The notes under the pieces were generated by a model. That model ran no database searches and was not told the origin of the DNA. It worked only from the letters and a program-made list of their open reading frames with translations. Source: a virus (lineage: Duplodnaviria > Caudoviricetes). Taken from it: 59,830 nucleotides of DNA. The DNA is taken from IMG/VR virus record IMGVR_UViG_3300000351_000079, positions 1 through 59,830 of that record. One strand, given 5' to 3'. Of the stretch, positions 19,341-54,753 are shown in pieces. The stretch's first letter is position 1. The number at the start of each line of letters is the position of its first letter. The translations under genes and the position numbers were made by a program.

Positions 19341-19877
19341 ATGTCCTGGATATATATTAATTCAACATCAAATGCAGAAAGATATGTTCTCGGAGACGTA
19401 ACAGGTAACAATCCCTTTATTGTCTTTGGTATTAATCCTAGTTATGCAACACCTACAAAATTAGATCCAACTTTAAGAGAAGTTGCTTCAATGTCAGTGA
19501 AGCTTGGGTATACTGGATGGATTATGTTAAACATTTATCCACAAAGATCGACAAATCCAAAAGGTATTCATCCAACAATAAACAATACTTTACACAACAA
19601 TAATCTTATTGAAATTGAAAAGATAATTAAGCAATATCCTAATGTTAGGCTTCATGCAATGTGGGGAAACAATATCAATAGATTCTCCTATCTTAAAGCT
19701 ACTTGTTTTCCAAATGTGGATAATATTAGAGTGGCTCACTCAACATCAGATTGGTATTATCTAGGAGGCAAAACTCTAGCAAGTGAACCATGGCATCCTT
19801 TATATGTACTAAGACAGCAGAACAAAGCTAACAAAAAAGGTTTAAGTGTAAATTATTATACAGAATATGTTTTGTAA
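19341..19877 (+). CDS. DUF1643-family protein
   Basis: RYVL, GINPSYA, DPT, NIYPQRSTNP, AMWG, PWHPLY motifs. Confidence 0.75.
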   Translation: MSWIYINSTSNAERYVLGDVTGNNPFIVFGINPSYATPTKLDPTLREVASMSVKLGYTGWIMLNIYPQRSTNPKGIHPTINNTLHNNNLIEIEKIIKQYPNVRLHAMWGNNINRFSYLKATCFPNVDNIRVAHSTSDWYYLGGKTLASEPWHPLYVLRQQNKANKKGLSVNYYTEYVL

Positions 19878-19960
19878 CCCCCGCCCATTGCTTGTATTTA
19901 TTAGCGAAGGGTACCGCGTAGGGGGACGTTTAATTTACACAAAGTCAATTTTTTGAAAAT
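19877..19960 (+). other. putative cos packaging site of element 1
   Basis: GC-rich CCCCCGCCC...AGGGTACCGCGTAGGGGGAC...ATTTTTTGAAAA between HNH and terS, the usual cos position; core duplicated at 54701-54720. Confidence 0.75.
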
Positions 19961-20062
19961 CATAATTTTTGAACTGGTAATATAAAAGCAGAAGATTTTA
20001 AAATAATGAAACATATATTATGTTGATTAATAATTTGTAATAATATTAACGGAGGAGTATGT

Positions 20063-20749
20063 ATGATAACTACTGATTCAATTACCCGAGTTTTAAAAAT
20101 AAGATTTCGTGAGTCTTCAGCTACAGCCTTTACGATTGAAAAAAATGATGTTCAATATCTCGTCACAGCAAAACATCTTTTTGACAACATTAGTTCAGGA
20201 AGCAAGGTTGATTTAGAAGTAACTCGAGAGAAAAAGCAATACAATTTATCATGCCAAGTTTTCTTCCATGAGATTAAAGAGATTGATATTGCAGTTTTAA
20301 AACTGCTTATAAATTCAAATATAACAAATAGAACAAATGTTGATTTTAGTGGAAATCTTATAATACTGGGACATGATGCATATATATTGGGCTTTCCTTT
20401 TGGTTTATTGAATTCGGACATAGAGGGAAATTTTAATTATCCTACACCGTTTGTTAAACGTGGATGCATATCCGCTACATTAAGGGAAAATGATGTGGAT
20501 GTGATTTATGCTGATACAGTAAATAATGTCGGATTTTCTGGAGGTCCTATGGTTACATATGATCCTAAAAATTATAAAAATCAATATATTATAGGAGTTA
20601 TTAGTGGATATAGGATTCATGTTTCAAACGTTTTTAATAAGCAAAATAAAGAAATTGATTTTTATGTTAAAGAGAATAGTGGTTTAACAAAAGCATATTC
20701 TATCAAATATGTTTTTGATATTATAGATAAAATGCAATTGATGATTTAA
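20063..20749 (+). CDS. trypsin-like serine protease (moron)
   Basis: Triad motifs VTAKH, DIAVL, GFSGGP; no signal peptide. Confidence 0.85.
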   Translation: MITTDSITRVLKIRFRESSATAFTIEKNDVQYLVTAKHLFDNISSGSKVDLEVTREKKQYNLSCQVFFHEIKEIDIAVLKLLINSNITNRTNVDFSGNLIILGHDAYILGFPFGLLNSDIEGNFNYPTPFVKRGCISATLRENDVDVIYADTVNNVGFSGGPMVTYDPKNYKNQYIIGVISGYRIHVSNVFNKQNKEIDFYVKENSGLTKAYSIKYVFDIIDKMQLMI

Positions 20750-20762
20750 ACTCAGCATATAT

Positions 20763-21131
20763 ATGTCATATAACAATTATAATAGAGGTGATGATTTTCT
20801 GAAAACAGCAGAGATTATATTAGAGTACAAGCGGCTAAAGTCGCTTTTTTCATTGGTTGACGATTCAAAAAAAGAGTTGGTAGACAATCTGATTTATCAA
20901 GCTGCTTTCATGAATGTAGAGTTATCTAAACTTCAGGAACAGATGATTAAGTATGGCGCAATACAAATTTCTACCAAAGGCGCACAAAGACAAACTGAAG
21001 CAGCTAAGTATTATACAAAGCTTGTTAATTCATATGGAACAGTTATAAAGACTTTAAACTCAATTCTAGGAACTCAAGTCAATGATGGAGATGATGCCTT
21101 TGATGAATTTCTTAAGAGAGCAAGTGAATGA
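20763..21131 (+). CDS. terminase small subunit (P27-like); start uncertain
   Basis: Helical ~120-aa ORF ending DDAFDEFL, overlapping terL (ATGA). Confidence 0.75.
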   Translation: MSYNNYNRGDDFLKTAEIILEYKRLKSLFSLVDDSKKELVDNLIYQAAFMNVELSKLQEQMIKYGAIQISTKGAQRQTEAAKYYTKLVNSYGTVIKTLNSILGTQVNDGDDAFDEFLKRASE

Positions 21132-22771
21132 ACTACCTAATTGAGTATTACAATGAAATCCAAAAAGGCAACATTATAGTTGGTGATGAACTAAAAAAGC
21201 AAATTGATAAGTTAATACTTGATCTAAGTGATCCAAGATATGTATTTGATGAAAAACCAGGGAACTTAAGAATAGATTTTATTCAAACATTCTGTAAACA
21301 TACTAAATCACCATTTAATGGACAACCATTTATATTAGAACTTTGGGAAAAAGCAATTATTCAAACTGCGTATGGGTTTAAAATAGCAAGTTCAGGGTTA
21401 AGACGTTTTAATGAAGTCATATTACTTATTGCGCGTAAGAACGGTAAAACAACTTTCATCGCTGGTGTAGATCTTGCTGAATTCTTTTTATCAAGAGGTG
21501 GTGTTGATATTGTATGTGCTTCAAATACAACAGAACAAGCAAACATCCTTTTTGAAGAGATAAATAACATGCGTGAGCAATCACCTTCGCTATCTAAAGA
21601 TACCAGAAGTAAAAAGAACATCTTCTTTATCTATTCACCTAAAACTAAGAACAAGATAAAGAAGTTATCAGCCCAATCAAGAAATAAAGATGGGTACAAT
21701 ATTGAAGTTGGTTGTATAGATGAAGTTCATGAAATGACGGATTCAAAAGTTTATGATGCGATTAAACAATCACAATCTACAAAGAAAGAACCATTAATTT
21801 TTATTATAACCACCGAGGGGACATCTGTAGGTGGTTTTTTAGATAGTAAGTTAGAGTATGCTAGAAAAATGATTAAAGATGAAATAGAAGATGAGAGAGT
21901 ATTACCTTGGCTATACACTCAAGACTCAGCTAAAGAGATCTATGATGATCCTAACACATGGCAAAAGTCTAATCCAAGCTTAGGTGTTGTTAAGACAAGG
22001 TCATATCTTGAAGACGTTATGAACAAATCCAAACACGACTTATCAACAAGAGTTACAATGCTTTGTAAGGACTTTAACATCAAACAAGCAGATTCTGGTT
22101 CATGGTTATCTTATGATGATCTAAATAATGAAGAAAGATATAACCTTGATGATTTAAGGGATAGTTATGCTATTGGTGGTGTAGACTTATCATCAACTAC
22201 AGATTTAACAGCTGCAGTTCTTATTATTCAAAAAAGAGATAGTAATAAGAAGTATATTATCCCACATTTCTTTATGCCTAGTGAAGTATTAGAAAAAAGA
22301 ATCACAGAAGATAATGTGCCTTATGATATTTGGATTAAAAAAGGATTTGTAACATTAACAGATGGCAATCAAAACGATTTCAGTCTAGTTACTAAATGGT
22401 TTATGAAAATGATTCAAACGTATGGTATAAGACCTCTTTGGGTAGGATACGATCCTTGGAACTCACAGTATTGGATTAAAGAGATGGAAGACTTAGGATT
22501 CAATATGGAAAAAGTAAGACAAGGTATTTATTCGTTATCAGAACCTATGAAGCAAATGGAAGCTGACTTAAAAAATAAATTAATTGTTTACGATAATAAT
22601 CCAATCTTAAAATGGTGTTTAGCTAATACACAAGCTAAAGTAGATTTAAATGGGAACATACAACCATCGAAGTTAAATTCAAAGTATAAAAGAATTGATG
22701 GAACTGTAGCATTGATTATTACTTATACAGTGCTTAACAGATATAAAATTGATTATGAAAATATGATATAA
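21128..22771 (+). CDS. terL: terminase large subunit (Terminase_1, cos type)
   Basis: ARKNGKT Walker A, IDEVH, GVDLSSTTDLT nuclease motif, KRIDG. Confidence 0.95.
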   Translation: MNYLIEYYNEIQKGNIIVGDELKKQIDKLILDLSDPRYVFDEKPGNLRIDFIQTFCKHTKSPFNGQPFILELWEKAIIQTAYGFKIASSGLRRFNEVILLIARKNGKTTFIAGVDLAEFFLSRGGVDIVCASNTTEQANILFEEINNMREQSPSLSKDTRSKKNIFFIYSPKTKNKIKKLSAQSRNKDGYNIEVGCIDEVHEMTDSKVYDAIKQSQSTKKEPLIFIITTEGTSVGGFLDSKLEYARKMIKDEIEDERVLPWLYTQDSAKEIYDDPNTWQKSNPSLGVVKTRSYLEDVMNKSKHDLSTRVTMLCKDFNIKQADSGSWLSYDDLNNEERYNLDDLRDSYAIGGVDLSSTTDLTAAVLIIQKRDSNKKYIIPHFFMPSEVLEKRITEDNVPYDIWIKKGFVTLTDGNQNDFSLVTKWFMKMIQTYGIRPLWVGYDPWNSQYWIKEMEDLGFNMEKVRQGIYSLSEPMKQMEADLKNKLIVYDNNPILKWCLANTQAKVDLNGNIQPSKLNSKYKRIDGTVALIITYTVLNRYKIDYENMI

Positions 22772-22791
22772 TTCTCATAAGAGGTGGTATT

Positions 22792-23970
22792 ATGTCAAAT
22801 GAGTCAATTGAAAAGTTAAAATATCAACATTTGAAACCTAGAACAATCAGTGATAAAAATCTTTATCTAACGGATTTAAATATGGCTGTAAGTAGAAGCT
22901 TTTCTGGAAGAATAGGAGCTGAGATTTCTACAGGGTTTTTATTTGAAGCTGAACATATGATAGCTAATTCAATAAAACAATATGAACTAGGAATGTTTGA
23001 TGCAGCCTTTTACAGTTTGAGAGCTACTTTAGAAATATTCATGCTACTAGTTTACTTTATAGAACATCAAGACTTAGAAATCAGTGAGCATGTAAAGAAA
23101 TGGGATAGTCTAGGGCGAATGGATACATATTCAATCATGGACAAGTATTTATCTAAGAAAAGTGAATTATATATTGATATAAAAGGTTCGATGAATTTGT
23201 ATTTTGAATCACTTAAAATATTGAACAGAAAACTGAATAAAAAAGTCCATAAGCAAAGTTTTATGAATTTTTATACACATAGAACTCACTTCGTCATTGG
23301 AGAAAATTATGATATTGACGCTGAGCAAGTTTTCTATGAGGAATCATTACGTAAAATTATTGGTGCAGTAGTAGTTTTTAGATTATTTATTGATCCTATG
23401 CCAATATTATTAATGGATGAAGAAATTTTCTTTAGAACTAGAGATACAATGTCAGGACCACTGTATGAAGAATTTGTTGACCGTTACATAGGTAAAGAAA
23501 ATATTGAAGATTATAAGAAATGCGAATTGTATCAAAATCACTATCAAGATTTTATGCAAGATAAAAAACTGCATACTTCTGTTGCATATTTACTAAAGTT
23601 TAAAACGATTGATATAACAAAAAAAGAAGAGATAGAAGACCAATTCTCTGAATTGTATGAGGACGATAAACTAGCATTCAGAATTGCCTGTGAATCTAAT
23701 AAAATATATGCTATAGATATTTACAATGGAATGAGAAAATATTTGATAAATACAGTTCCGGAAGATATGCAACCATATTATAGAAACATGGAACATAAAA
23801 AATACTTCAAGCTAGAAGAAGACATACACAACCAACCTTTTGAAGATATCTTTATTTCCATATTTGTATTTAATAATCATAGACTCTTCATAGAACAGGC
23901 TGAGAAACTAGATGAAAATTGCTTAACAAAAATTAGAAGTCATATTGATGAATATTCCAACAAAACTTAG
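22792..23970 (+). CDS. hypothetical protein inserted between terL and portal
   Basis: GAGGTG RBS; N-terminal AAFYSLRATLE...NKKVH HEPN-like pattern. Confidence 0.65.
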   Translation: MSNESIEKLKYQHLKPRTISDKNLYLTDLNMAVSRSFSGRIGAEISTGFLFEAEHMIANSIKQYELGMFDAAFYSLRATLEIFMLLVYFIEHQDLEISEHVKKWDSLGRMDTYSIMDKYLSKKSELYIDIKGSMNLYFESLKILNRKLNKKVHKQSFMNFYTHRTHFVIGENYDIDAEQVFYEESLRKIIGAVVVFRLFIDPMPILLMDEEIFFRTRDTMSGPLYEEFVDRYIGKENIEDYKKCELYQNHYQDFMQDKKLHTSVAYLLKFKTIDITKKEEIEDQFSELYEDDKLAFRIACESNKIYAIDIYNGMRKYLINTVPEDMQPYYRNMEHKKYFKLEEDIHNQPFEDIFISIFVFNNHRLFIEQAEKLDENCLTKIRSHIDEYSNKT

Positions 23971-23979
23971 GAGGTGCTC

Positions 23980-25200
23980 ATGGCCATATTTAAGAGAAAA
24001 AATAAAACTGGCTCGATTGATGCCTTACAAATCATTAATAATACAAACACATTTTATACACCTTTTGGAACTAACATTTCAAAAAGTGATGTGGTTAAGA
24101 TTTGTATAGATCGTGTGGCCAGTCAATGCGCAAAACTAAAACCAAGATATATTAAAACAGAAAACGATAAGACAGTATCCGAGAAAAGCGGAAAACTGTC
24201 TTTTCTTTTGAAGCATAAACCAAACGAAGTCATGACACCTTATGATTTTATCTACAAGGTTGTTACAATTCTATTGTTAAATGATAATGCCTTTATTTAT
24301 CCAAGGTTTGATAAATTTACAGGACACCTCATAGGGCTTTATCCATTAAAGCCGATTACGGTTGAAATGATAATTGATCAACAAGATCAATATTATGTTA
24401 AATTCTTATTTGTGAATGGAGATTCCTATACACTCCCTTATGAAAACATCATTCATTTAAGGAAGCATTATGGCCAAAACGATATCTTTGGTGGTAATGG
24501 ATCAAGTGGTGATCATGAAGCGATTCTTAAAACAATATCAATTAATGACAGTTTACTACAAGGTATTGATAATGCCATAAAATCATCGATGCAAATTAAA
24601 GGTATTGTTAAGATGAATGGGATGTTATCAGAAGTCGATAAGAAAAAACAAAGAGAACTCTTTGATAGTGCACTCTCAGATTCTATTAACAATAAAGGCA
24701 GTTCTATTATCCCGATTGATTTAAAGAGTGAATATATACCATTAGAAGTTGATCCTAAACTGATAGATAAAGATACACTTGAATTCTTACAGTCAAAGAT
24801 ATTAGATTATTTTGGAGTATCAGTACCAATCTTTACAAACAAGTACACAGAAGATGAATATAACTCGTTTTACGAGTCAACCATTGAGCCTTTAGCTATT
24901 CAACTTAGCGAGGCTTTTTCTATAGGTTTACTAACTAATAACCAACTAGAACGTGGTGAGGAGATTGTCTTCTTTAGTGAAAGATTACAATATGCATCCT
25001 GGAACACAAAAGTAACAGCGATTGAAAAGCTCATGAGCCTCGGTATCATGTCACTTAATGAATCAAGAGCATTATTAGGGCTAGAACCTATTGAAGGTGG
25101 ACACAAACGACTTCAATCATTAAACTTTGTTGATGCGGATAAAGCAAACCTATATCAAGTTGGAAAGAAAGAGGAAGAAGAATATGAAAGTAACGATTAA
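23980..25200 (+). CDS. HK97-family portal protein
   Basis: LLKHKPN, IIHLR, NESRALLGLEP; ATG 23980 after GGAGG. Confidence 0.93.
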   Translation: MAIFKRKNKTGSIDALQIINNTNTFYTPFGTNISKSDVVKICIDRVASQCAKLKPRYIKTENDKTVSEKSGKLSFLLKHKPNEVMTPYDFIYKVVTILLLNDNAFIYPRFDKFTGHLIGLYPLKPITVEMIIDQQDQYYVKFLFVNGDSYTLPYENIIHLRKHYGQNDIFGGNGSSGDHEAILKTISINDSLLQGIDNAIKSSMQIKGIVKMNGMLSEVDKKKQRELFDSALSDSINNKGSSIIPIDLKSEYIPLEVDPKLIDKDTLEFLQSKILDYFGVSVPIFTNKYTEDEYNSFYESTIEPLAIQLSEAFSIGLLTNNQLERGEEIVFFSERLQYASWNTKVTAIEKLMSLGIMSLNESRALLGLEPIEGGHKRLQSLNFVDADKANLYQVGKKEEEEYESND

Positions 25201-25402
25201 TGGCAAGATATCAAATGAAGCGTTAAAAAGTATCTTAGAAACACAAAAAGAAAAAACAAAAACGATTGCTGATTTTTGTAAGAAAGAAAAACTAGATACA
25301 TTTTCATATAAGGATTCAGAACTTGAGTTTGACTATGAACAAGAAACAAAACCAAAACAAGTAAAGAAAGTTGAGGTTAGACAAAATGATAAAAGAAACT
25401 AG
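25184..25402 (+). CDS. 72-aa hypothetical protein between portal and protease
   Basis: ATG 25184 after GAGGAAG; overlaps both neighbours. Confidence 0.55.
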   Translation: MKVTINGKISNEALKSILETQKEKTKTIADFCKKEKLDTFSYKDSELEFDYEQETKPKQVKKVEVRQNDKRN

Positions 25403-25976
25403 ACTTGCTGATGTAACACTTCATGAAGATGAAGGTAAGATGATCTTAGAAGGCTATGCTTTAGTCTTTAATAATGAAACATTAATTGGTGATGAGACTT
25501 ATGGATTTATAGAAGAAATATCACCTACAGCCTTACAAGAAACCAAAATGAAGGATGTTCCTATGAAATACAATCATATGGACTCCTTTTTAATTATTGC
25601 AAGAACAAAGAATAAATCACTTGAACTTACAGTTGATCATATCGGACTAAAGGTAAGAGCAGAACTCTTAGATACCAGTCATAACCAAGATATTTACAAA
25701 ATGGTTAGAAGTGGACTGTTAGATAAGATGAGTTTTGCTTTTACGGTTGATGAACAGGTATGGAACCGTGAAGGGGACATTCCTAAAAGAACTATTACAA
25801 AGATAGAAAGGTTGTATGATGTGTCGGTTGTGGATACACCGGCCTATGATGCAACGTCTATATACGCTCGTTCTTTAGAATCCATGGAGTTGGAACTAAA
25901 GACTATGGAGTTAGCAGAGCAAAATGAAAAATCAAATTTAATTAAAAAACGTATCAAAATTAAAACTCAAATCTAA
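25386..25976 (+). CDS. HK97-family prohead protease
   Basis: EGYALVFN, YNH, MSFAF, DVSVVDTPAY. Confidence 0.93.
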   Translation: MIKETRLADVTLHEDEGKMILEGYALVFNNETLIGDETYGFIEEISPTALQETKMKDVPMKYNHMDSFLIIARTKNKSLELTVDHIGLKVRAELLDTSHNQDIYKMVRSGLLDKMSFAFTVDEQVWNREGDIPKRTITKIERLYDVSVVDTPAYDATSIYARSLESMELELKTMELAEQNEKSNLIKKRIKIKTQI

Positions 25977-25990
25977 GGAGAGAAAGATCT

Positions 25991-27130
25991 ATGAATTTAG
26001 AATTAAGAAGAAAAGAAATCGAATCAAGATTAAAAGAAATTAGAAGCCTAGTAGATAGTGAAGCTGATCTAGAAAAGCTAGAAGCTTTGGAATCAGAAAC
26101 AACTACCCTTCAAGAAGAAAGAACATCAATTGATAAAAAGATGTTGATTGCTTCTAAAACTGAATTTAAACCCATTCAAGTAGATAATCGCCAAATGGTG
26201 GATAAAGAGAAACTAGAAACAAGAGGGCAAAGCTTAAAAGAAAGCAGAGTCATCCAAGTATCTAGTTCAGAGATATTACTTCCTGATCACACATCAACGA
26301 ACCTTGCACCAGTTCCATTTGCTCAAGTGTCAAGTTTAGTTGATCGTGTGAATGTGATTAACTTAAACGGTGGTGAAACCTATAAGAAATCATTTGTCAA
26401 AACAAATGGTATTGCTGGAACCACTGCAGAAGGTGCGGCTTACTCTGAAACAGAACCTGCATTTGGTTATTTAACCATTTCAAAAGTAAAGATTACTGCT
26501 TATACAGAGATTACTGAAGAGTTAGAAAAACTACCTTCAATTCCTTATCAAGCGGAAGTCTTACGTAATATCAATATTTCACTTAAAAAGAAGATTAGTG
26601 AACAAATCTTACGTGGTGCAGGAACAACCAATACATTCACTGGAATCTTTAGTGAAGCTGCGATTGCACTTGCTGATAAAGCAGCACTTGAAATTGAAGC
26701 GATTACGGATTCAACACTTGATGACATCGTATTTGCCTATGGTGGTGATGAAGAAGTCGAAGGTGGTGCAGTTCTTATTTTAAATAAGAATGATTTAAGA
26801 GCATTTGCTGGACTTAAGACACAAGAAGGACGTAAGGTTCATACCATTGATTATGTCAACAAAACGATTGATGGCATTCCTTATATCATCAACTCACATT
26901 GTAAAGCAATCTCAGATACAAACACAGCTGCAGGTGAATATGCAATCGCTTATGGTGCACTTAAAAATTATGAAGTCCCAGTATTCTCACCAGTAGAAAT
27001 TGGTAAGTCAACAGATTACAAATTTAAAGACGGTATCATCAGTTATAAAGCTTCAGTCTTTACCGGTGGTAACGTTGTGGGATATAACGGATTCTTACGT
27101 ATCAAAAAGAAAGCTGCACCTGCAGGATAA
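25991..27130 (+). CDS. major capsid protein (HK97 fold with N-terminal delta domain)
   Basis: Coiled-coil N-terminus, AEGAAYSE, ILRGAGT, position after the protease. Confidence 0.92.
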   Translation: MNLELRRKEIESRLKEIRSLVDSEADLEKLEALESETTTLQEERTSIDKKMLIASKTEFKPIQVDNRQMVDKEKLETRGQSLKESRVIQVSSSEILLPDHTSTNLAPVPFAQVSSLVDRVNVINLNGGETYKKSFVKTNGIAGTTAEGAAYSETEPAFGYLTISKVKITAYTEITEELEKLPSIPYQAEVLRNINISLKKKISEQILRGAGTTNTFTGIFSEAAIALADKAALEIEAITDSTLDDIVFAYGGDEEVEGGAVLILNKNDLRAFAGLKTQEGRKVHTIDYVNKTIDGIPYIINSHCKAISDTNTAAGEYAIAYGALKNYEVPVFSPVEIGKSTDYKFKDGIISYKASVFTGGNVVGYNGFLRIKKKAAPAG

Positions 27131-41180: not shown

Positions 41181-41290
41181 GTTTTTAGGGACTAAAGAAA
41201 ACAATATTGATTTTTAGAAATAGATGATAGTTATATAGCATTTTATTAAAGAGTTTAGTAGCAAGCAACTTTTTATATTGGGAGGCAAGG

Positions 41291-44375: not shown

Positions 44376-44518
44376 GTTGCAACATTCCAAATGATGCCTT
44401 TGCAGTACAAGATTAGACTAAGTTAGATATAAACGAATGATACCAAGAAATTTGAAAAAGATTTGCAAAGCTAAATTACTTATTTCTTCAATTGTAAAAA
44501 GCAACACACAACATTATA

Positions 44519-44599
44519 GGGTAAAACTCCGTACATTATACATCAAAATCGGGTAAAACTCCGTAATAAAGACACATGATTTTAATACGGAGTTTATTT
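44519..44599. repeat. junction repeat cluster: GGGTAAAACTCCGTA x2 plus inverted TACGGAGTTT
   Basis: Exact 15-mers at 44519-44533 and 44551-44565; inverted 10-mer at 44586-44595. Confidence 0.75.
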
Positions 44600-44684
44600 G
44601 TAAAACTGCCTAAAATAAGCATTTTAATGGTTATATAGGCTGGATTTTATTAAAATAAACATCCTTTTCTATAAAATAGAGAAT

Positions 44685-46466: not shown

Positions 46467-48166
46467 ATAAGTTCCTCTCCAATTTCAATAACACTATATT
46501 TGATTTGAAATCCATTTTTCTCGTTTTTAATGGATGAATCAAACAGTGAATCGTAGGTTCTTAGAAGTTCAATTTTATCAGTGAAATCTTTAGATGATAT
46601 TTCTAAATTACTCATACATAAAATCACTTCCTGGTTTGATATTTGAATAATTTTCTTAAATATTAGAAGAAGAGCATCTCGGCTTAGGATTTGAGTTTTC
46701 TGTAAGAATTCCTGAAGTTTTTGTATGCGCTTATTGTTGATATGAAGAGAAGCCAATTGGTTTTGAAATTGTTCAAGTTCATTCTGCAAATCTTCAATCT
46801 CTTGTTTCTTTTCTTCAAAAGCTTTGACAAGATATTTATCGTTTTGATTTGATACATCAGATATTCTTAAGTTTATTAATCCCTTAATCTCATCTTCAAC
46901 TTTACTTATTTGTTTTTGTTTTAATTCTATTGAATCGATAATTTGACTTGAATCTAAATTCTTAATTACTGTATGTGATATCTGATCTATCAAAGTAGGA
47001 TTGATAATTTCCAGTTTTAATAAAGCATCACTACAAACCATTTCCAGTGTTTCATTATCGATGGGCAAGTTATTACATTTGATTTTTTTCTTAGAGGTAT
47101 TTTTACAGGTTAGGACAACTCTTTCGTTTTCTGTCCGATAATTATAGTAGTTTCTATTTAAAACGCGTCCACAACAACTACAATGTACAATACCACTTAA
47201 TGGAAACTGATTCCCATAGCGAGAAGACTCATTACTTGTCGAGCGAACTTTTGTTATTTGTTGGACAACATCGAACAACTCTTTTGAAATAATAGCCTCA
47301 TGATTATTTTCAATATAATATTGGGGAGCTTGACCAGTATTGATGACTGACTTATGAGATAAATAATCGAGTGTCACTCTTTTTTGAAGAAGTACGTCTC
47401 CCATATATTTTTCATTCTTAAGAATATTCATTATGTTCGCTGGATGCCATACAACTTCTTTTCTACCATTTTTGAAATTATTGTCAATTAAGTGTTTGGC
47501 TATTTCTCTATATGACATTCCTGATATATATAGGTTATATATCATTTTAACTACTTTAGCTTCTGAATCGTTGACAATGATTTTTCCATGCGCATCTTTA
47601 TCGTATCCTAGAAATCTACTTGTATTGATTCGAATCGTGCCTTCTTTGTATCTTTTTCTAATACCCCATTTAACATTTTCACTTATATTTCTAGCTTCTT
47701 CTTGAGCAATGGAAGAGAATATTGTCAACATTAAATCTACTTTTGAATCAGTAGAACTGAGGTTTTCCTTTTCAAAGAAGACTTCAACATTAATTAATCT
47801 TAGTTCTTGGATGATCGATAAACAGTCCACAGTATTTCTTGCGAATCTTGATAATGATTTTGTCAAAATTAAATCAATTTTTCCATTTCTTGCATCTTCA
47901 AGCATTCTTAAAAAATTAACCCTTTTTTTGGTGCTGGTTCCTGATGTTCCTTCATCTGCATATAAGTCTACAAAGTCCCAATCTTTATTATCTTGAATTC
48001 TTTTTGTATATTCAGTGATTTGAGCATTATAAGAATTAAGTTGATCGGTTGAATCTGTTGAGACCCTTGCATAAGCACATACACGCCTCTTTTTTGGAAT
48101 TACATCTGCATTACCAGGAATAAATGCTGGGGTAGCGTCTATTCTGATTACTTTTCTTTCATTCAC
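46463..48166 (-). CDS. large serine recombinase
   Basis: VCAYARVST, KSLSRFARN, NEKYMG, CSCCG; counterpart of 1947-3644. Confidence 0.92.
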   Translation of the reverse strand: MNERKVIRIDATPAFIPGNADVIPKKRRVCAYARVSTDSTDQLNSYNAQITEYTKRIQDNKDWDFVDLYADEGTSGTSTKKRVNFLRMLEDARNGKIDLILTKSLSRFARNTVDCLSIIQELRLINVEVFFEKENLSSTDSKVDLMLTIFSSIAQEEARNISENVKWGIRKRYKEGTIRINTSRFLGYDKDAHGKIIVNDSEAKVVKMIYNLYISGMSYREIAKHLIDNNFKNGRKEVVWHPANIMNILKNEKYMGDVLLQKRVTLDYLSHKSVINTGQAPQYYIENNHEAIISKELFDVVQQITKVRSTSNESSRYGNQFPLSGIVHCSCCGRVLNRNYYNYRTENERVVLTCKNTSKKKIKCNNLPIDNETLEMVCSDALLKLEIINPTLIDQISHTVIKNLDSSQIIDSIELKQKQISKVEDEIKGLINLRISDVSNQNDKYLVKAFEEKKQEIEDLQNELEQFQNQLASLHINNKRIQKLQEFLQKTQILSRDALLLIFKKIIQISNQEVILCMSNLEISSKDFTDKIELLRTYDSLFDSSIKNEKNGFQIKYSVIEIGEELI

Positions 48167-48530: not shown

Positions 48531-49196
48531 TTAAAAATCTTTGATCGCCTTTTTGATTGTACCAATTAAGATTGTATCTATTTCATCTTTGGTAGCTATA
48601 ATTGGCATCATGTTTTGGTTTAGGTATGTATAACTATTCTTTCTTCTTGGGGTAGGTGTGAATTTTACTACAGAAGGATAATAGTAATCTTTATCACGTA
48701 GTAACGCATAAACACCTTTATTATCGATTTGATCTATTACATATAGATTCATATCAACTAATAGCGTAGTACCCATAGGCATTTTAAGAAGTAATGAATC
48801 AGACATTAAATCTACAGCAACTAGTCTTTTGGACTCTTTAAGATTACTATCGAACACAAAGTTCTCAACTTTAGGCTGTTGTTCATATCTACCATCTGCA
48901 CTTAATTTATATCTTGTAATCATATGGTTTTCACCAAATGAATAAGTATTCTTTCTTTTTAATAGGGCATCAATTGATGTATCAAGCACATAAGATAGCA
49001 TCATCAAGTTAGATGCTTTTGCATCAGTTTGACCTTGTTCATAGGATATTAGTGTTTTCTTGCTAATGGTTCCATGACAGCGTTTAACGACTTCGTCTAA
49101 TGTGAGATTTCTTGATTTCCTAATGCTTTGATCAATTCCAGAATAATCTACATATGAGTTGTGGAAAACAAATTTTTCTTTTGCCATAATCTTCAC
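48531..49196 (-). CDS. XRE-family repressor with degenerate S24-like C-terminus
   Basis: TISKKTLISYEQGQT HTH; SDSL...GTTLLVD resembles GDSM..GD.VLVD. Confidence 0.75.
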   Translation of the reverse strand: MKIMAKEKFVFHNSYVDYSGIDQSIRKSRNLTLDEVVKRCHGTISKKTLISYEQGQTDAKASNLMMLSYVLDTSIDALLKRKNTYSFGENHMITRYKLSADGRYEQQPKVENFVFDSNLKESKRLVAVDLMSDSLLLKMPMGTTLLVDMNLYVIDQIDNKGVYALLRDKDYYYPSVVKFTPTPRRKNSYTYLNQNMMPIIATKDEIDTILIGTIKKAIKDF

Positions 49197-49207
49197 TTCC
49201 TTTTCAG

Positions 49208-49435
49208 TAACACTATTTTATCACGTATTAAACACTGTGTCATTTCTTTTATCTAATCTACGTAAAAAGTGAAGAATATTACACTATAAATGAATAAGTA
49301 ATTCTTATGTATCCTTTAAAAAGTGTAGTTTCGATATTTGAGGTTTTAGTGTTAAATTGAGTCCGATATTAGCTATCTGTGCCCAGCGTCAAAGAATCAA
49401 ACATAAACATATTATTATAAGTGTATAGGTGTTAA
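49208..49435. promoter_or_regulatory. divergent switch region with repeated ACACT/AGTGT operator-like half-sites
   Basis: ACACT at ~49210, 49232, 49281; AGTGT or GGTGT at ~49322, 49348, 49420, 49428. Confidence 0.4.
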
Positions 49436-49461
49436 ACAACATAAAACAAGGAGGATTATAA

Positions 49462-49713
49462 ATGGATTTAAGGATGTATTTGGTAAGTGCTAGACAGAAT
49501 AAAGGTTATTCTCAAAGAAGAACTGCAAGGGAATCTGGAGTATCTTATCAACACTATGCGAAAATTGAAAATGGTGATCGTGGACGAAAAGTATCATTCC
49601 TAATCATAGGAAGAATTGCAGCAGTATTAGACATTTCTCTTGATGATCTATATCAATTGGAAAAAGCATATCTAGAAGAAATCGAACTAAAAAATGAATC
49701 AAAACCGTATTGA
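49462..49713 (+). CDS. Cro-like XRE regulator
   Basis: HYAKIENGDRG; homologue of 4791-5087. Confidence 0.82.
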   Translation: MDLRMYLVSARQNKGYSQRRTARESGVSYQHYAKIENGDRGRKVSFLIIGRIAAVLDISLDDLYQLEKAYLEEIELKNESKPY

Positions 49714-50623
49714 TTTTAAGAGATTGATAGAAGCCTATATTCAAAGCCTGGATAGAAAAGAGATAACCAAACAATCATATTTGAAGATCTTATTAACATT
49801 TAATGAGTACTTAATAGCAAATTCAATTTTATCGCCAAATAAAAAGGATATCTTATGCTATAAAGAGTACTTATCTAAAAAAGTTAGATCTGCTTCAATT
49901 CAAAAAACAATTGTTGTGCTAAGAGGTTTCTTTACCTATCTTGATTCAGAGGACACATATAGAAATGTTATGACAGGTGTAAGAGGAGTTAAAATAGAAC
50001 CAACCTTTAAACGAGCATCACTAACTCTATTAGAAATGTTAAATTTGCTAGATAAAGCAGAAGAGTTATCTAATACAATTGAGGGCAAAAGAAACTATGC
50101 AATAATCGCTTTACTTGCAACTACGGGTCTAAGAACAATTGAAGTGGAAAGAGCTAATGTGAGCGATTTAGTAGCCGTTAGTGATGGATATAAACTCTAT
50201 ATTCAAGGTAAGGGTCATGATGATAAAGATTTATATGTCAAGATATCAGATGACGTTTATCAAATCATTATGGAGTATCTTTTATTAAGAGAAGATTCAT
50301 TTGAAGCATTATTCATCACTCATGGTCGCAATAATCATGGGAAGAGAATTCAAACAAGAACGATAAGAGGTATTGTCAAAGAAATCCTAAGAAGAACTGG
50401 TATAGATGACAAAAGATATACCGCCCATAGCTTAAGACATTCTTTGGCAACAAACTTAATCCTTCATGGAAATGGTTCGCTGGAAGAAGCAAAACAAATT
50501 TTAAGACATAAAGACATCGCAACAACACAGATATATAATCATTCATTAGCTAGGTCCCAAAATGATGGAGAACTCAAAATGAGCAAGTTACTGTTTGATA
50601 GAAAGGGTAAAAAGTATGAATGA
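49694..50623 (+). CDS. tyrosine recombinase
   Basis: TGLR, QGKG, HSLRH, ILRH, TTQIY; homologue of 5101-6000. Confidence 0.9.
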   Translation: MNQNRIDFKRLIEAYIQSLDRKEITKQSYLKILLTFNEYLIANSILSPNKKDILCYKEYLSKKVRSASIQKTIVVLRGFFTYLDSEDTYRNVMTGVRGVKIEPTFKRASLTLLEMLNLLDKAEELSNTIEGKRNYAIIALLATTGLRTIEVERANVSDLVAVSDGYKLYIQGKGHDDKDLYVKISDDVYQIIMEYLLLREDSFEALFITHGRNNHGKRIQTRTIRGIVKEILRRTGIDDKRYTAHSLRHSLATNLILHGNGSLEEAKQILRHKDIATTQIYNHSLARSQNDGELKMSKLLFDRKGKKYE

Positions 50624-50810
50624 TAAAGTGGTATTATATGATATCAATGATCTTATTGAGATTCTAAAAGTTACTCGAGTAACAATCATCAGGTATATCA
50701 ATCAAAAAAAGATAAGAGCATTCAAGGTTGGCCAAGGATGGAGAGTGACCAAAGAAGCTCTCGAAGAATTTATCAAGATAAGCGAAAAGAATCATGGCTG
50801 GAAAACCTAA
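50616..50810 (+). CDS. excisionase-like HTH_17 protein
   Basis: YDINDLIEILKV...KVGQGWRV; ATG 50616. Confidence 0.8.
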   Translation: MNDKVVLYDINDLIEILKVTRVTIIRYINQKKIRAFKVGQGWRVTKEALEEFIKISEKNHGWKT

Positions 50811-51684
50811 ACTAGGACTTGAATACTTTTCTGTTGATGTTGATATGACAAGAAATATGAAAATTAAAAGGTTGATGAGAGCATTTGGGACTGAAGGGTA
50901 TGCAGCCTTTATGTTCCTTGTTTCATGGATTTATGAAAAAGGTCAGTTCTGGCGGTATGATAATCTAGATGATGTGCTGTTTGGATTATCAGAAGCCATT
51001 CATGTAGAGGAAGATAAAGCATTATCCATTATTAACTATCTTCTAGATGTTGGGTTGCTAGATAGAAAATCCTTTGATCAAGGATATCTCACATCCAAAG
51101 CTATTCAAGAAAGATATTATTATGCAACGAAAAGAAGAAAAGTTCGCATTCTAGAAGAATGCTGTCTGTTATCGGAAGAAGAAATGAAACACATTGATAG
51201 TAAGACCGATTACCAAAATAACATCTCTGTTAGCAAAGATGTTATTCATGCAAGCAAAGATGAGGTTTCTGTATTCAAAGATAGACAAAGTAATAGTCAT
51301 AATAAAAGTAATAGTAAAAAAGATAAAGGAATGATAAATCATGATATTGGATCTGTCGATCCTAATACTATCCCATTTAAAATAAATTATTATCTTCAAG
51401 TCTTAATAAATAATGAAATCGTTTCTGGAACTGAAGACTGGATTACGGTATTAAATGACTTCTTGTATATGATAACTAAGAAGCATAATAAAGATGATGT
51501 TAGAAAGGCGATTTTTTATTCGATAAAAAGAATTAAGTTCAATCAATGGAAAGATGAACATGGATATGAAATTGCAAACAGAGAGCCTTATCTAGAAGAA
51601 ACAATTTCTAATAACATTGCATATAACGAGTCAACAATAGATAGAATCGAACGTATGAAAAATTTCAGTGCAGTGTTTTATTGA
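50794..51684 (+). CDS. DUF4373 replication initiator
   Basis: MAGKPKLGLEYFSVDV, LTSKAIQ; homologue of 7027-7881. Confidence 0.8.
   Translation: MAGKPKLGLEYFSVDVDMTRNMKIKRLMRAFGTEGYAAFMFLVSWIYEKGQFWRYDNLDDVLFGLSEAIHVEEDKALSIINYLLDVGLLDRKSFDQGYLTSKAIQERYYYATKRRKVRILEECCLLSEEEMKHIDSKTDYQNNISVSKDVIHASKDEVSVFKDRQSNSHNKSNSKKDKGMINHDIGSVDPNTIPFKINYYLQVLINNEIVSGTEDWITVLNDFLYMITKKHNKDDVRKAIFYSIKRIKFNQWKDEHGYEIANREPYLEETISNNIAYNESTIDRIERMKNFSAVFY
51232..51326 (+). repeat. putative origin of element 2: 21-bp-period iterons
   Basis: CAAAGAT at 51234, 51255, 51276 followed by AAAGTAATAG repeats. Confidence 0.55.
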
Positions 51685-51730
51685 CGATATGTTTGAATGT
51701 TTAAGTTGGATTATATAGAATTTAAATAAT

Positions 51731-51792
51731 TGCAACGGAATTTCTTATTCGATTAGAAAAACCGTTGCATTTTGTGTTTTATATGCTATACT
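51731..51792 (+). promoter_or_regulatory. abiE promoter with inverted-repeat operator
   Basis: TGCAACGG..TTTCT / AGAAA..CCGTTGCA overlapping -35 TTGCAT; extended -10 TGCTATACT. Confidence 0.7.
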
Positions 51793-51819
51793 ATATATGA
51801 AAAGAAGTGTGGTGATGAT

Positions 51820-52482
51820 ATGAAAAGTCCAAAGAAAAAAGATATAATTCTAGAATACATAAAAAAAAACTATGATAACAAAACACCTATATTTGTAAAT
51901 GATATCTATAAAGAATTCACTGAAATTAGTGAAGGTACGATTAGATCCTTATTTAAACGTTTTAGTGATGCTGATGTTTTAGAAAAAGTGGATAATGGTG
52001 TATACGCTTTACCTAATAAGGAGAGCGTTTTAGGCAAAGCTACTGTTTATGTTTCAAATGTTATTGAAAATAAATATATTCGAAATGAAAAAGGGCAGAG
52101 AATAGGATACATCAGTGGCATAAACTTTTCGAATCAAATAGGACTTACATCACAAACCGCAAGTGTTAATACAATCTATTCAAATAATGTATCAAATAAG
52201 AAAAGAATGACAACACTAAAAAACAGTAGACTGATAATTAATGCACCAAGAGTTAAAGTTACTGATGAAAACTATAAATTGCTTCAGATATTAGACTTGT
52301 TAAATGAATTTGAAAAACTTAGTGAACAAGATTTAAAAACGGCCTCAAACAAAATACTAGAGTTTTTAGAGAAAATAAAATTAACAAAGGAAGAAGTAGA
52401 ATTAATTGTATCTAAATATCCATTAGAGGCACAAGTGAAATTCTATAAAATAGGGGGAGCAAATGCTATTACATCAACATAA
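51820..52482 (+). CDS. AbiEi-like antitoxin (DUF6088-like)
   Basis: wHTH with GVY motif, GYISG...NQIGLTSQ; start moved to ATG 51820. Confidence 0.78.
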   Translation: MKSPKKKDIILEYIKKNYDNKTPIFVNDIYKEFTEISEGTIRSLFKRFSDADVLEKVDNGVYALPNKESVLGKATVYVSNVIENKYIRNEKGQRIGYISGINFSNQIGLTSQTASVNTIYSNNVSNKKRMTTLKNSRLIINAPRVKVTDENYKLLQILDLLNEFEKLSEQDLKTASNKILEFLEKIKLTKEEVELIVSKYPLEAQVKFYKIGGANAITST

Positions 52483-53407
52483 AGAAGAATTTGAACAAAT
52501 TGTACAAGCGACTGCTGATGATTTGGGGTTAGGTAATTTTCAAGTTGAAAAAGACTACTATGTATCATTGTTTTTAAAAGAACTACAAAAAATAGATAAT
52601 GATATCCAAATTGTTTTTAAAGGCGGGACATCTCTTTCAAAATGTTATGATATAATTGATCGATTTTCAGAAGATATTGATTTGTCGGTTAAATTTAACA
52701 CAGATAAAATCACAACATCAGAAAGAAGAAAACTTAAAACAAGTATTACTAAAATTATTGAATTATTAGGCATGAACTTCATCAACCCTGAAGAAGTAAG
52801 ATCAAAAAGAGACCATAACCAATACAATGTAGGATATGATCATATATTTCAGCCTGATGAAAACACGGTACCGCACATTATAGTTGAAACAATTGTCGTA
52901 TATAGACCGTATCCTATAAAAGAAATGGAAATAAGTAATTACATTACTAAGTATTTGAAGAAAAATAATAGAGCTGACTTAATTGAGAAATATGAATTGT
53001 CTCCATTTGTAATGCCAATACAAACAATGGAAAGAACATTTATTGATAAACTTTTTGCTATATGTGATTACCATTTACAAAAAGAGTATAATCGTTACTC
53101 AAGACACATTTACGATATACATATGATTTGGAACAGTGGAAAACTAGATGAAGACATCATGAGAAAAATAGTTCTGGATGTTATTAAAGATCGACAACTA
53201 TTTGGCAGGCGAAATTTATCCTGTCAATCAGGAGCTTCACCAAATGATGTATTGAAAGAGATAGTTGCACTAAAAGTATACGAAACAGATTATAATAATA
53301 TTACTGCAAAATTTATCTACAAACCTGTTGATTATAATGCTTGTATAGAGAGTTTAAAGAAAATTACTGATACAAAAATCATCCCCAATCTGATAAAAGA
53401 GTACTAG
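52463..53407 (+). CDS. AbiEii nucleotidyltransferase toxin
   Basis: VEKDYY, FKGGTSLSK, RFSEDID, RHIYD. Confidence 0.9.
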   Translation: MLLHQHKEEFEQIVQATADDLGLGNFQVEKDYYVSLFLKELQKIDNDIQIVFKGGTSLSKCYDIIDRFSEDIDLSVKFNTDKITTSERRKLKTSITKIIELLGMNFINPEEVRSKRDHNQYNVGYDHIFQPDENTVPHIIVETIVVYRPYPIKEMEISNYITKYLKKNNRADLIEKYELSPFVMPIQTMERTFIDKLFAICDYHLQKEYNRYSRHIYDIHMIWNSGKLDEDIMRKIVLDVIKDRQLFGRRNLSCQSGASPNDVLKEIVALKVYETDYNNITAKFIYKPVDYNACIESLKKITDTKIIPNLIKEY

Positions 53408-53564: not shown

Positions 53565-53600
53565 GCCACTGGTTGCCTATGCAAACAGTGGTTTCTTTTT
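53565..53600 (+). terminator. terminator-like hairpin upstream of the HTH gene
   Basis: GCCACTG-GTTGC-CTAT-GCAAA-CAGTGGT then TTCTTTTT. Confidence 0.6.
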
Positions 53601-53659
53601 GTATAATGGATAGGTGAACAAAGGGTGAGCGATTTACCCTCTCAAAGGAGAAATGATTT

Positions 53660-54157
53660 TTGGCTAAAGTTTTAGACTCATTTGAAAGATGGGAAAATCA
53701 AGGACTATTAAAGAATAAATTAAAAATAATAGAAGAACTAGTGGCAAAGAATGTAACACAGGAAAAGATTGCCAAAGTCATTGGGATATCTGAAAAGACA
53801 CTGCAAAAATTAAAAAATAAGCATGTTGAATTTGCTCGTGCATTCTCTAGAGGTCAGTTAGATCTTAAAGATAACCTTATAGGAGCAATCTATAAAAAAG
53901 CTATGGGATTTGAACATGAAGACATTCAAACGCAAATGGAAGATCATAATGGAAAGCCTAAAAAGAAAATTGTTAAAACAATGAAGTATTATCCACCTGA
54001 TCTAAATGCTGCAAAATATCTTCTAATTATCAAGTTTGGTAGATCTTTTAATGAGAAAAAAGATGAACTTGATCTAATGGAAAGAAGAATTGATGAAAAA
54101 GAAAATGAGTGGACCAACGAACAAAATTTCTATAAGGAGGTAAATCATGAAGTTTGA
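53660..54157 (+). CDS. HTH terminase-small-like protein, homologue of 14222-14716
   Basis: IAKVIGISEKTL, KKAMGFE, PDLNAAKYLLIIKFGR. Confidence 0.7.
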   Translation: MAKVLDSFERWENQGLLKNKLKIIEELVAKNVTQEKIAKVIGISEKTLQKLKNKHVEFARAFSRGQLDLKDNLIGAIYKKAMGFEHEDIQTQMEDHNGKPKKKIVKTMKYYPPDLNAAKYLLIIKFGRSFNEKKDELDLMERRIDEKENEWTNEQNFYKEVNHEV

Positions 54158-54533
54158 CTTAAATGATTTGTTTAATGAGAATATTCCTTTATATCATAGA
54201 ACAATGATTAGTGATTGTTCTTCAAATGAGTATATATTTGGCAAACTTATTGGGAAGTTAAAAGAAAACTTCAAGGATTACCAACAATCTGAAATCATAT
54301 ATATAACCTATCGAAAAGAAATGTTTAATTATCTTGTTATGATATATCACTTTGATGATGTGGAAATTACATTAACCCCTATTGAAATCAAGGTTTTTAA
54401 AGCATGGGACCAAATGAAAGACTATATTAGAAGTATTCAAGTGCATATCGATGATAATTCATATCAAATAGAAAGAAAACATGCGGGTGTTTCAGATGCT
54501 TTTGATTATAATGTATTTGACTCCGATAGATAA
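54147..54533 (+). CDS. hypothetical protein
   Basis: AAGGAGGT RBS; overlaps the upstream gene. Confidence 0.65.
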   Translation: MKFDLNDLFNENIPLYHRTMISDCSSNEYIFGKLIGKLKENFKDYQQSEIIYITYRKEMFNYLVMIYHFDDVEITLTPIEIKVFKAWDQMKDYIRSIQVHIDDNSYQIERKHAGVSDAFDYNVFDSDR

Positions 54534-54553
54534 TTAGCAATTTAGAAATATAT

Positions 54554-54597
54554 AAAACGTCACATAAAGTCTTAAATTCGACTTGTGTGACGTTTTT
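54554..54597 (+). terminator. terminator before the element 2 cos copy
   Basis: AAAACGTCACAT-AAAGTC...GACTT-GTGTGACGTTTTT. Confidence 0.7.
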
Positions 54598-54670
54598 ATT
54601 GTGTAATAGAATAGAATAATCACCTTGCTCACAATTCATTAATAATCGTATATAAAATCATCTTAATGAT

Positions 54671-54753
54671 ACCCCCCCATTGAATGTAATTCTCGAGTAC
54701 AGGGTACCGCGTAGGGGGACCTTTAAAATACGGAAGATACATTTTTTGAAAAA
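54671..54753 (+). other. copy of the putative cos site in element 2
   Basis: AGGGTACCGCGTAGGGGGAC identical to 19908-19927; upstream CCCATTG and ATTTTTTGAAAA 20 bp downstream also conserved. Confidence 0.8.

Follow-up and report, generated by a model that had tools for sequence, protein, structure and literature searches.

Two integrated elements whose DNA scarcely aligns carry an identical, GC-rich 20-mer, and the question is what keeps it there. The elements lie side by side in a 59,830-nucleotide stretch of viral DNA (Duplodnaviria; Caudoviricetes), positions 1 to 59,830 of IMG/VR record IMGVR_UViG_3300000351_000079, which we analysed at full length and call the window. Element 1 is an HK97-like temperate phage. 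Element 2, cut by the window end, appears from its genes to be a phage-derived island. We consider that the phage copy of the 20-mer probably marks a cos (cohesive-end) site, at which the genome would be cut for packaging, and we lean modestly towards the fuller proposition that element 2 uses its own copy to be mobilised by the phage.

The 20-mer, AGGGTACCGCGTAGGGGGAC, occurs at 19908-19927 (+) and 54701-54720 (+). These are its sole matches in the window, even at up to three mismatches; none of 100 dinucleotide-preserving shuffles of the window matched it, and no match is expected by chance. The initial annotation, made from the sequence of the window, had pointed out these two identical copies in the same orientation, and the exact search and the shuffles bear this out. 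The copies extend into two composite sites:

19878..19960, + strand: site of element 1, with a C run (19878-19886), a spacer, the core (19908-19927), TTAA (19930-19933) and TTTTGAAAAT (19951-19960).
54672..54753, + strand: site of element 2, with a C run (54672-54678), the core (54701-54720), TTAA (54723-54726) and TTTTGAAAAA (54744-54753).

Direct reading confirmed the flanks that had been described: a C run upstream, TTTAA..TAC just downstream, a shared block 20 bp further on and differing bases in between. Upstream of the core, both copies have a C run followed by ATTG, within CCCCCGCCCATTG at 19878-19890 in element 1 (ending 17 nt ahead of the core) and CCCCCCCATTG at 54672-54682 in element 2 (ending 18 nt ahead). 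G/C-TTTAA..TAC lies directly 3′ of the core in both, and ATTTTTTGAAAA starts exactly 20 nt past it, at 19948 and 54741. In the alignment, the bases between these shared blocks are unlike in the two copies, and 54672-54752 matches 19880-19959 at 76.5% over 81 bp (blastn, E ≤ 1e-3).

This patchy conservation proved to be real and family-wide. We aligned 175 distinct copies of the site gap-free on the core, taking the core start as position 0, and the 20-mer emerged as the core of a composite site of ~82 bp: a C5 run is followed by a spacer that is uninformative, by GGGTACCGC with a variable, G-rich half, and then by an A-tract and T4GAAAAT. Its parts in the 175 copies are:

-29..-25: C5 run, 90-98% conserved.
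-23..-1: spacer, with almost no information.
0..9: AGGGTACCGC, near-invariant, which is partly forced by the anchor.
10..19: G-rich half, variable at positions 10-13, 15 and 18.
22..29: TTAAAAAA, the A-tract, conserved.
34..37: AGGC, conserved.
43..52: TTTTGAAAAT, conserved.

By position, the conserved blocks are -29..-25, 0..9, 13..19, 22..29, 34..37 and 43..52, a spacing of ~10.5 bp that places them on one helix face. One detail of the flanks did not hold beyond the window: CCCATTG is not conserved across the family, and only the C run is. The right half of the core has at least 15 variants among 62 phage-type metagenome copies, 12 of which have the variant of the window. The latter accompanies HNH proteins that are 67-97% identical to that of element 1, as judged by eye with no tree-based test, and the HNH protein is not an obvious determinant of the variable half.

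The distribution of the site follows the packaging genes. Apart from its two copies in the record, the exact 20-mer occurs once in each of 17 other IMG/VR viral contigs. An HNH homolog lies 0.9-1.7 kb upstream of it in all 17, and homologs of the large terminase TerL and of the protein in the position of the small terminase gene terS lie at most 2 kb downstream in 16. A search with the HNH protein gave the same picture: 149 relatives were found in IMG/VR, and in all of the best 80, which were examined, the site lies 325-2832 bp past HNH, with GGTACCG in 79 and GGGACCG in one. A complete prophage in genome G018 has the same HNH-site-terminase layout. The initial annotation had given it as known that cos lies between HNH and terS in HK97-like phages with an HNH gene. 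In all examined phage loci the site does lie between HNH and the terminase genes; HNH is not adjacent, and there is cargo on both sides.

A degenerate pattern of the site matched 117 stretches in metagenomes. We examined 80 of these loci, of which 62 are phage-type, five are islands of the element-2 type, four have no phage marker and nine have flanks too short to classify. The four without a phage marker have flanks of at least 1.5 kb; one has a serine recombinase and then the R subunit of a type I restriction enzyme, and another has Fic, the site, EVE, MarR and an ABC transporter. Among 185,579 species genomes, the exact 20-mer is found in six contigs: three of phage type, one with TerL 2.3 kb downstream, one with an element-2 homolog and one with a serine recombinase element before a threonine operon. 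In the order to which the metagenome-assembled genome G001 belongs, 11 of 158 genomes contain the pattern, with at most two copies each; the 12 sites comprise ten of phage type and two islands, both in G001, where a third island carries the core with one mismatch. The motif might have been a host-wide dispersed repeat, which would have spoken against cos. The counts in species genomes and in this order rule that out, with only few copies also in the record and in viral contigs. The copy number is one per element, and the orientation is always that of the downstream genes. The hosts of this large family of HK97-like prophages are uncultured low-GC bacteria, and phages of the element-1 type occur in sludge or digesters. 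By DNA, the nearest isolated phages cover 3-8% of the query.

The threonine-associated contig (G003:C121, locus L037) has the exact 20-mer in the region 4383-5990, directly followed by thrC, thrB, hom, asd and aspartokinase genes; besides a serine recombinase and an HTH_17 protein, the element has a tyrosine recombinase, which is truncated and located upstream of the site. The G+C content there and in the G001:C21 island described below is uniform (27-34%), which is uninformative as to cargo versus host genes. Two metagenome contigs, L147 and L214, end 3-4 nt to the left of GGGTACCGC. Roughly 0.6 such ends would be expected, so this is not significant, and the ends are probably assembly breaks at a mosaic joint.

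Element 1 is a temperate phage of 44.5 kb, from base 45 to ~44574, inserted at a tRNA-Cys gene. It has a TerL with ATPase and nuclease domains, HNH, a portal, an S78 protease and an HK97-type capsid (Pfam). Its features, in which HTH stands for helix-turn-helix and ORF for open reading frame, are:

1..44, + strand: 3′ part of tRNA-Cys(GCA), read directly; insertion point of element 1.
298..3680, - strand: two tandem large serine recombinases (Pfam Resolvase, Recombinase and Zn_ribbon_recom).
3980..7881: early module (Pfam and PHROGs), which includes an antirepressor and HTH_17.
3980-4576, - strand: repressor-like HTH protein of the early module.
4791-5087: Cro-like HTH protein of the early module.
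5101-6000: tyrosine recombinase of the early module.
7027-7881: Lin1244_N replication initiator of the early module.
7850-8263: small sigma/activator-like HTH protein (PHROGs).
17114-18244: SAM synthetase, preceding the HNH gene.
18231..18515, + strand: HNH endonuclease, 94 aa (Pfam HNH, PHROG HNH families).
18571..19877, + strand: cargo slot A, a set of three variable ORFs that separate HNH from the site; DUF1643 is in the last of them.
20063..20749, + strand: cargo slot B; trypsin-like peptidase (Pfam Trypsin_2) with a weak LmuA-like match (PADLOC, E 1e-11).
20763..21131, + strand: 122-aa ORF in the terS position, overlapping the TerL start.
21128..27130, + strand: TerL to capsid, with tail genes beyond (Pfam).
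21128-22771: TerL (Pfam TerL_ATPase and TerL_nuclease).
23974-25200: portal (Pfam Phage_portal), with the S78 protease (Peptidase_S78) next.
25991-27130: HK97-type capsid (Pfam Phage_capsid).
38536..44024, + strand: defence cargo at the right end, SIR2-HerA and Gabija (GajA, GajB; Pfam, PADLOC).

ARAGORN found no tRNA in the window; the tRNA-Cys gene is cut off at the window start. The region 8306-18244 of element 1 encodes four DNA methyltransferases (two C5, one Eco57I-like and one N6/N4 enzyme fused to ParB_N) besides the SAM synthetase, which probably serve anti-restriction. Between TerL and portal there is a 392-aa ORF (22792-23970) with a weak DUF5677 match, and the G018 prophage has a 416-aa ORF at the equivalent place.

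Element 2, by its gene content, is not a second phage. The part inside the window reads:

44496..44610, + strand: junction near 44575 between element 1 (right end) and element 2 (left end).
44805..48166, - strand: pair of large serine recombinases in tandem, with 38-45% identity to the element 1 pair.
48531..53407: early module, with a repressor-like HTH protein (- strand), a Cro-like HTH protein, a tyrosine recombinase, HTH_17, a replication initiator and AbiE.
49694-50623: tyrosine recombinase.
50794-51684: Lin1244_N replication initiator.
51772-53407: AbiEi/AbiEii.
53660..54533, + strand: HTH protein of 165 aa resembling small terminases (53660-54157, phrog_309) and a 128-aa ORF with no assigned function.
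54554..54596, + strand: hairpin and U run, 100 nt ahead of the core.
54873..59741, + strand: cargo start, with an SNF2 helicase (1074 aa), DUF4391 and a type III methyltransferase that is cut by the window end (Pfam, PADLOC).

The remainder could be read from a close relative. A 49.6-kb contig of G001 (G001:C22) is 96.3% identical to window positions 44575-59452, that is, over 14.9 kb. There the element begins directly past the CCA end of a complete tRNA-Cys (ARAGORN) and ends ~34.8 kb on, at an 86-bp segment that is 85% identical to 44496-44581 of the window, the right end of element 1. Past the site, G001:C22 carries SNF2, DUF4391, a type III methyltransferase and a type III restriction enzyme, Wadjet JetABCD, Gabija and a second AbiE, and also a DUF6933/PDC-S63 protein, SoFic and a transglutaminase-like protein (Pfam, PADLOC). 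Counted from the 128-aa ORF to slightly beyond the right end of the element, there are 21 ORFs of 70 aa or more, and these belong to defence or host-type families only, none of them structural. HNH, the terS-position protein, TerL and SAM synthetase had no tblastn match on the contig. A Pfam scan of 36 ORFs of element 2 (at least 70 aa) turned up neither structural nor terminase families, nothing capsid-like was found among the scanned ORFs of element 2 and G001:C22, and G001, an incomplete metagenome-assembled genome, yielded no TerL homolog. Given that HNH, TerL and structural genes were not found and that the cargo past the site is defence only, element 2 is best regarded, as far as its genes indicate, as a phage-derived island free of morphogenesis genes. 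A search for island relatives in IMG/VR by way of DUF4391 gave 14 pattern matches, none confirmed, and is uninformative.

The other two islands of G001, in C21 (locus L034) and C1 (L035), have the early module and the site, followed by a MarR-like gene and polysaccharide biosynthesis genes, which may modify the phage receptor. Elements of the family have two tandem large serine recombinases at one end and a tyrosine recombinase with HTH_17 inside the early operon. Element 1 and the G001 homolog of element 2 each adjoin the 3′ end of a tRNA-Cys gene, and in the window the two elements are arranged in tandem. The right ends of element 1 and the G001 island are 85% identical, although the recombinases are only 38-45% identical. 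From site to right end, the distance is 24.67 kb in the phage (19908-44574) versus ~24.72 kb in the island (G001:C22, 39252-~14535). It follows that the two sites of the tandem are 34.79 kb apart (cos to cos), which is also the length of the island itself. The match may be chance.

The site of element 2 appears to be under constraint. DNA alignment between elements 1 and 2 is confined to the recombinase genes (67-71%) and the 81-bp site (blastn), and their shared proteins are 32-49% identical (blastp). Seven copies of the element-2 type (the window, G001 and five metagenome loci) fall into two sub-lineages, between which identity is 86-100% in the C run, 90-100% in the left core and 73-79% in +20..+52, versus 20-37% in the sequence before the C run, the spacer and the distal flank. 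Islands with unrelated cargo of at least four kinds retain all subsites at unchanged spacing. The initial annotation had suggested that selection keeps element 2 compatible with the terminase of element 1, and its first half, selection on the element 2 site, stands, as the site is constrained in element 2 and its relatives and the flanks have diverged.

These same comparisons bear on whether the element 2 copy could be an inert relic, inherited with a decaying or domesticated prophage remnant that is now a fixed defence island, the phage site still being cos. Descent from a phage of the family is clear from the order of early-module genes, the tRNA-Cys site and the shared 164-aa homolog, no helper was found in G001, and the G003 element looks truncated, with its shortened tyrosine recombinase and host-type genes right past the site. 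A neutral relic should have decayed, however, given that the proteins are only 32-49% identical and no other non-coding sequence aligns. The contrast between subsites (73-100%) and flanks (20-37%) within the island lineage, and the retention of every subsite and its spacing across at least four unrelated kinds of cargo, also argue against a relic, as do the intact island ORFs with their retained recombinases and replication gene. Decaying genes and an unselected packaging signal would mark a defective or cryptic prophage; element 2 does not have this character. We therefore consider the relic unlikely.

The site also coincides with mosaic joints. Related elements match as far as the core's left edge, and homology is lost 6-9 bp past the core. 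The assembled contigs of 16 sequencing runs showed only module swaps: in contigs of other runs 18556-19907 is replaced, with the break point at 19908, and so is 19934/19937-20825/20829. With segments replaced on both sides, the phage site is flanked by two hypervariable cargo slots, which extend from HNH to the site and from the site to terS. Their contents include DUF1643, the trypsin-like/LmuA-like protein, a KAP NTPase and AbiE (loci L003-L019, L056-L135). One could imagine that the site serves site-specific recombination, for instance by the encoded tyrosine recombinase, and that cargo is exchanged there like cassettes. The exact joints invite this idea, as do the entirely different downstream contents (late genes, defence, polysaccharide or thr genes) and the tyrosine recombinase and HTH_17 protein of both elements. 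However, the only conserved dyad is the 6-bp GGTACC, with none beyond and no inverted arms around a spacer, and there is one copy per element, not two. In locus L185 the 0.7 kb between the site and a serine recombinase contain no tyrosine recombinase. Homologous recombination likewise breaks at short conserved islands, and the asymmetric, phased 82-bp layout fits terminase sites better. Recombination as the function of the site is very unlikely in our judgement.

A role in RNA or transcription was considered as well. No Rfam match was found in the window at gathering thresholds, and predicted folds of both copies on both strands have z-scores of -1.4 to +0.3 relative to shuffles, which led us to reject an RNA element. 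A sigma-70 promoter or a terminator as the main function was likewise rejected, with no conserved match over the site. In element 2, the hairpin before the site (-20.4 kcal/mol, z -5.8, with none of 200 shuffles as stable) is probably the terminator of the upstream operon. Past the site, TATAAAAT at 54855-54865, ~155 nt from the core start and ~100 nt from the site, is conserved in all seven island copies (the window and L024, L152, L171, L175, L176 and L210) and probably serves the cargo operon as its -10 element. With the terminator before it and a separate TATAAAAT after it, the element 2 site lies between transcription units.

Such a location is relevant to the idea that the site is a regulatory element heading the late or cargo operon, bound by a late activator or an alternative sigma factor, so that the cargo of islands responds to infection. 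The site is always at the boundary of early and late or cargo genes and always oriented like the genes downstream; element 1 encodes the sigma/activator-like HTH protein at 7850-8263, and phased blocks are also compatible with an activator array. By contrast, there is no conserved -35/-10 pair: a candidate on the + strand of element 1 (9/12) is not shared, and the + strand of element 2 has none. Several phages have the ribosome-binding site of the next ORF ~20 nt past GAAAAT, and the cargo of the islands has its own conserved TATAAAAT. The first cargo is an operon of the restriction-modification type, which presumably must be constitutive, and no activator-like homolog was found in element 2. 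A GC-rich invariant 9-mer is also untypical for promoters of genomes with 30% G+C. We judge the regulatory function quite unlikely.

If the site is cos, a small terminase should recognise it, and there are two candidates. A 164-aa phage protein (14222..14716, + strand) is 49% identical to the 165-aa island protein at 53660-54157 (blastp), which ends 0.5 kb from the island's site. Both match the PHROG annotated as terminase small subunit, phrog_309 (E 5e-22 for the island protein, 9e-18 for the phage protein). The AlphaFold2 model of the 165-aa protein (pLDDT 78) shows an HTH at the N terminus together with a long helix and a beta hairpin. Its five best VIA matches are small terminases and cover residues 5-73 only: Sf6 in three entries (Z 6.1-6.9), a phBC6A51 phage protein (Z 5.0) and PaP3 (Z 4.5). 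The best, to Sf6, has Z 6.9 and a root-mean-square deviation of 2.2 over 59 residues, and a Z of this size may mirror a common arrangement. Foldseek gave weak matches (the best, E 0.055, to an SPP1-like small terminase), and a sequence search of the Protein Data Bank (PDB) with the profile of the TerS-like proteins gave nothing meaningful. Taken together, the model and the profile matches moderately support calling the 164- and 165-aa proteins TerS-like. The second candidate, the 122-aa protein in the terS position, is helical (AlphaFold2 pLDDT 80) and belongs to phrog_1066, whose function is unknown. One of its 18 homologs gave a marginal Terminase_4 match (E 0.11, Pfam scan), and the protein is named TerS by position only.

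Comparison with known systems places the two elements near established cases. The small terminase of HK97 binds on the terminase side, at 15-29 bp downstream of its cut, and there reads a G and an A-tract, and the HNH protein gp74 stimulates cutting, which gives 10-nt 3′ overhangs (PMC11331095). Element 1 resembles HK97 in its HK97-type capsid, S78 protease, portal and TerL and in the HNH gene at the end of the early (right) arm, and the layout of the family site, a GC-rich core and then an A-tract at +22..+29, is of the HK97 kind. The differences are that the family site has no sequence similarity to HK97 cos; that cargo genes part HNH and terS from the site in element 1; and that no similarity of the terS-position protein to known TerS could be detected.

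Cos-type Staphylococcus aureus pathogenicity islands (SaPIs) carry the cos of their helpers and are packed from cos to cos (PMC5052747). Element 2 is like SaPIbov4 and SaPIbov5 (helpers phi12 and phiSLT), which combine a lack of packaging enzymes with a highly conserved copy of the helper cos; both helpers are cos phages that depend on HNH and infect a low-GC Gram-positive host, and the satellite needs unit-length cos-to-cos packaging (PMC5052747). However, SaPIbov5 is ~14 kb, encodes the capsid homolog Ccm and has small capsids, whereas element 2, at ~35 kb and with nothing capsid-like found, would have to be packed in full-size capsids. It also differs from SaPIs in its two serine recombinases, in the attachment site that it has in common with the phage, in its phage-like regulation (repressor/Cro type) and in its cargo of ~25 kb of defence systems.

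In the P2/P4 pair, cos is the only homologous region, and defence hotspots adjoin it (PMC9122126). The two variable slots flanking the phage site and the defence cargo that starts at the island site recall this arrangement, although those hotspots measure 1-5 kb, versus ~25 kb of cargo in element 2. P4 itself is ~10-12 kb and shrinks the capsid; its host phylum, recombinases and size differ from those of element 2, and no psu, delta, sid, alpA, epsilon or primase family is among the Pfam matches of the 36 element-2 ORFs, a scan that included no dedicated profile search.

Among phage-inducible chromosomal islands (PICIs), the cos type of Escherichia coli (EcCICFT073 type) has its own cos and Rpp, which redirects the helper terminase (PMC6739421). 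Element 2 similarly encodes a TerS-like protein near its site, and its terminase-side blocks differ from those of the helper at several positions. The TerS-like protein, however, also occurs in the phage and is not island-specific, and size and cargo differ. The median size of PICIs is 9.5 kb, with few reaching 20-28 kb, and known satellites have medians of ~10 kb (PMC10085698).

Like a cos satellite, element 2 has a putative packaging site with all subsites and no structural or terminase families among its ORFs of at least 70 aa. It departs from PICIs and SaPIs both in size, being ~34.8 kb with no capsid-like gene found, rather than 10-15 kb with ccm, cpm or sid, and in integration, which is at the tRNA-Cys common with the phage and with two large serine recombinases as the terminal recombinases, rather than at a separate site that prophages leave alone and with a terminal tyrosine integrase. 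By analogy, then, element 2 would work like the cos SaPIs and P4, yet it is a member of neither family. Cos piracy by satellites and defence hotspots beside cos are already known, and element 2 is a variant thereof. A paper on Butyrivibrio phages, the nearest TerL clade, has nothing on cos, and full-text literature searches, whose coverage does not extend to bioRxiv supplements and subscription journals, gave no description of this element family.

The model that we favour is the following. The 20-mer would be the core of a cos-type site, recognised and cleaved for packaging in a family of temperate HK97-like phages, element 1 among them, whose enzymes are TerL and an HNH nuclease. The C5 run, at its fixed distance upstream, may act like the termination subsite cosQ; the GC-rich core is the presumed nicking region, where cleavage would produce cohesive ends; and the A-tract and T4GAAAAT on the terminase side are the presumed region of small-terminase binding and bending. 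Element 2 has retained recombinases, an immunity switch, a replication initiator, the TerS-like protein and the site, and in place of the entire late region it has defence systems amounting to ~25 kb. Upon induction of, or infection by, a helper of the element-1 type, the island would excise and replicate, the helper terminase and HNH would cut island concatemers at the island's own copy of the site, and island units of ~35 kb (~78% of the helper genome) would fill ordinary helper capsids and so be transferred. At this length, the island could fit normal capsids.

Several observations weigh against this model. The cos label rests on position and architecture, and no virion ends were seen in the 16 runs, whose assembled contigs do not reveal the ends of molecules. 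Cargo genes of up to ~2 kb between the site and the terminase genes are unusual for cos, and the C run is absent from one phage-type copy (G002:C74). In the phage, the TerS-like protein is encoded 5 kb upstream of the site, and the 122-aa protein has no recognisable TerS fold or family, with no fold match at E ≤ 0.001. The site was found in no isolated phage of the phage collection, where nine weak blastn rows are chance matches to the AT-rich flanks and the most similar TerL reaches only 39% identity. The threonine biosynthesis operon right after the site in G003 is not predicted by a pure satellite model, and G001 has three islands and no helper that we found in this incomplete assembly. The second half of the earlier claim, that the two sites are matched, fares less well than the first: the identical 20-mer is not specific to the pair, since 12 of the 62 phage-type metagenome copies have its right-half variant too, and identity alone is weak evidence for pair-specific matching. 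Finally, 78% of genome length is near the lower packaging limit of phage lambda.

A bolder reading is that such islands form a distinct class of cos satellites of full capsid size, in which the late module of ~24.7 kb was replaced by defence cargo of nearly equal length. As the cargo is about as long as the late module, the unit would stay packageable with no capsid remodelling. The islands would be integrated in tandem with the helper at one tRNA-Cys, and their own TerS-like protein, beside a site with the helper core and diverged terminase-side blocks, would steer the helper's TerL and HNH. The site would also anchor the two defence hotspots of the phage and so be a hub of immune-cargo exchange, which would include the polysaccharide and amino-acid islands. 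We regard this extension as tentative and rather unlikely.

For practical purposes, the site serves well as an anchor for the discovery of new defence systems in the two slots, and searching for it finds phage hotspots and islands even in short metagenome contigs. Conserved anchors next to cos were reportedly proposed for such searches by Rousset et al. If the favoured model is true, large defence islands of uncultured low-GC bacteria move as satellites that retain, of the whole of morphogenesis, only a packaging signal of ~82 bp. Cos piracy would then extend from the 10-15-kb SaPIs, P4 and PICIs to 35-kb elements in normal capsids, and there would be a mechanism for the spread of multi-system islands with type III restriction-modification, Wadjet, Gabija, AbiE and SoFic.

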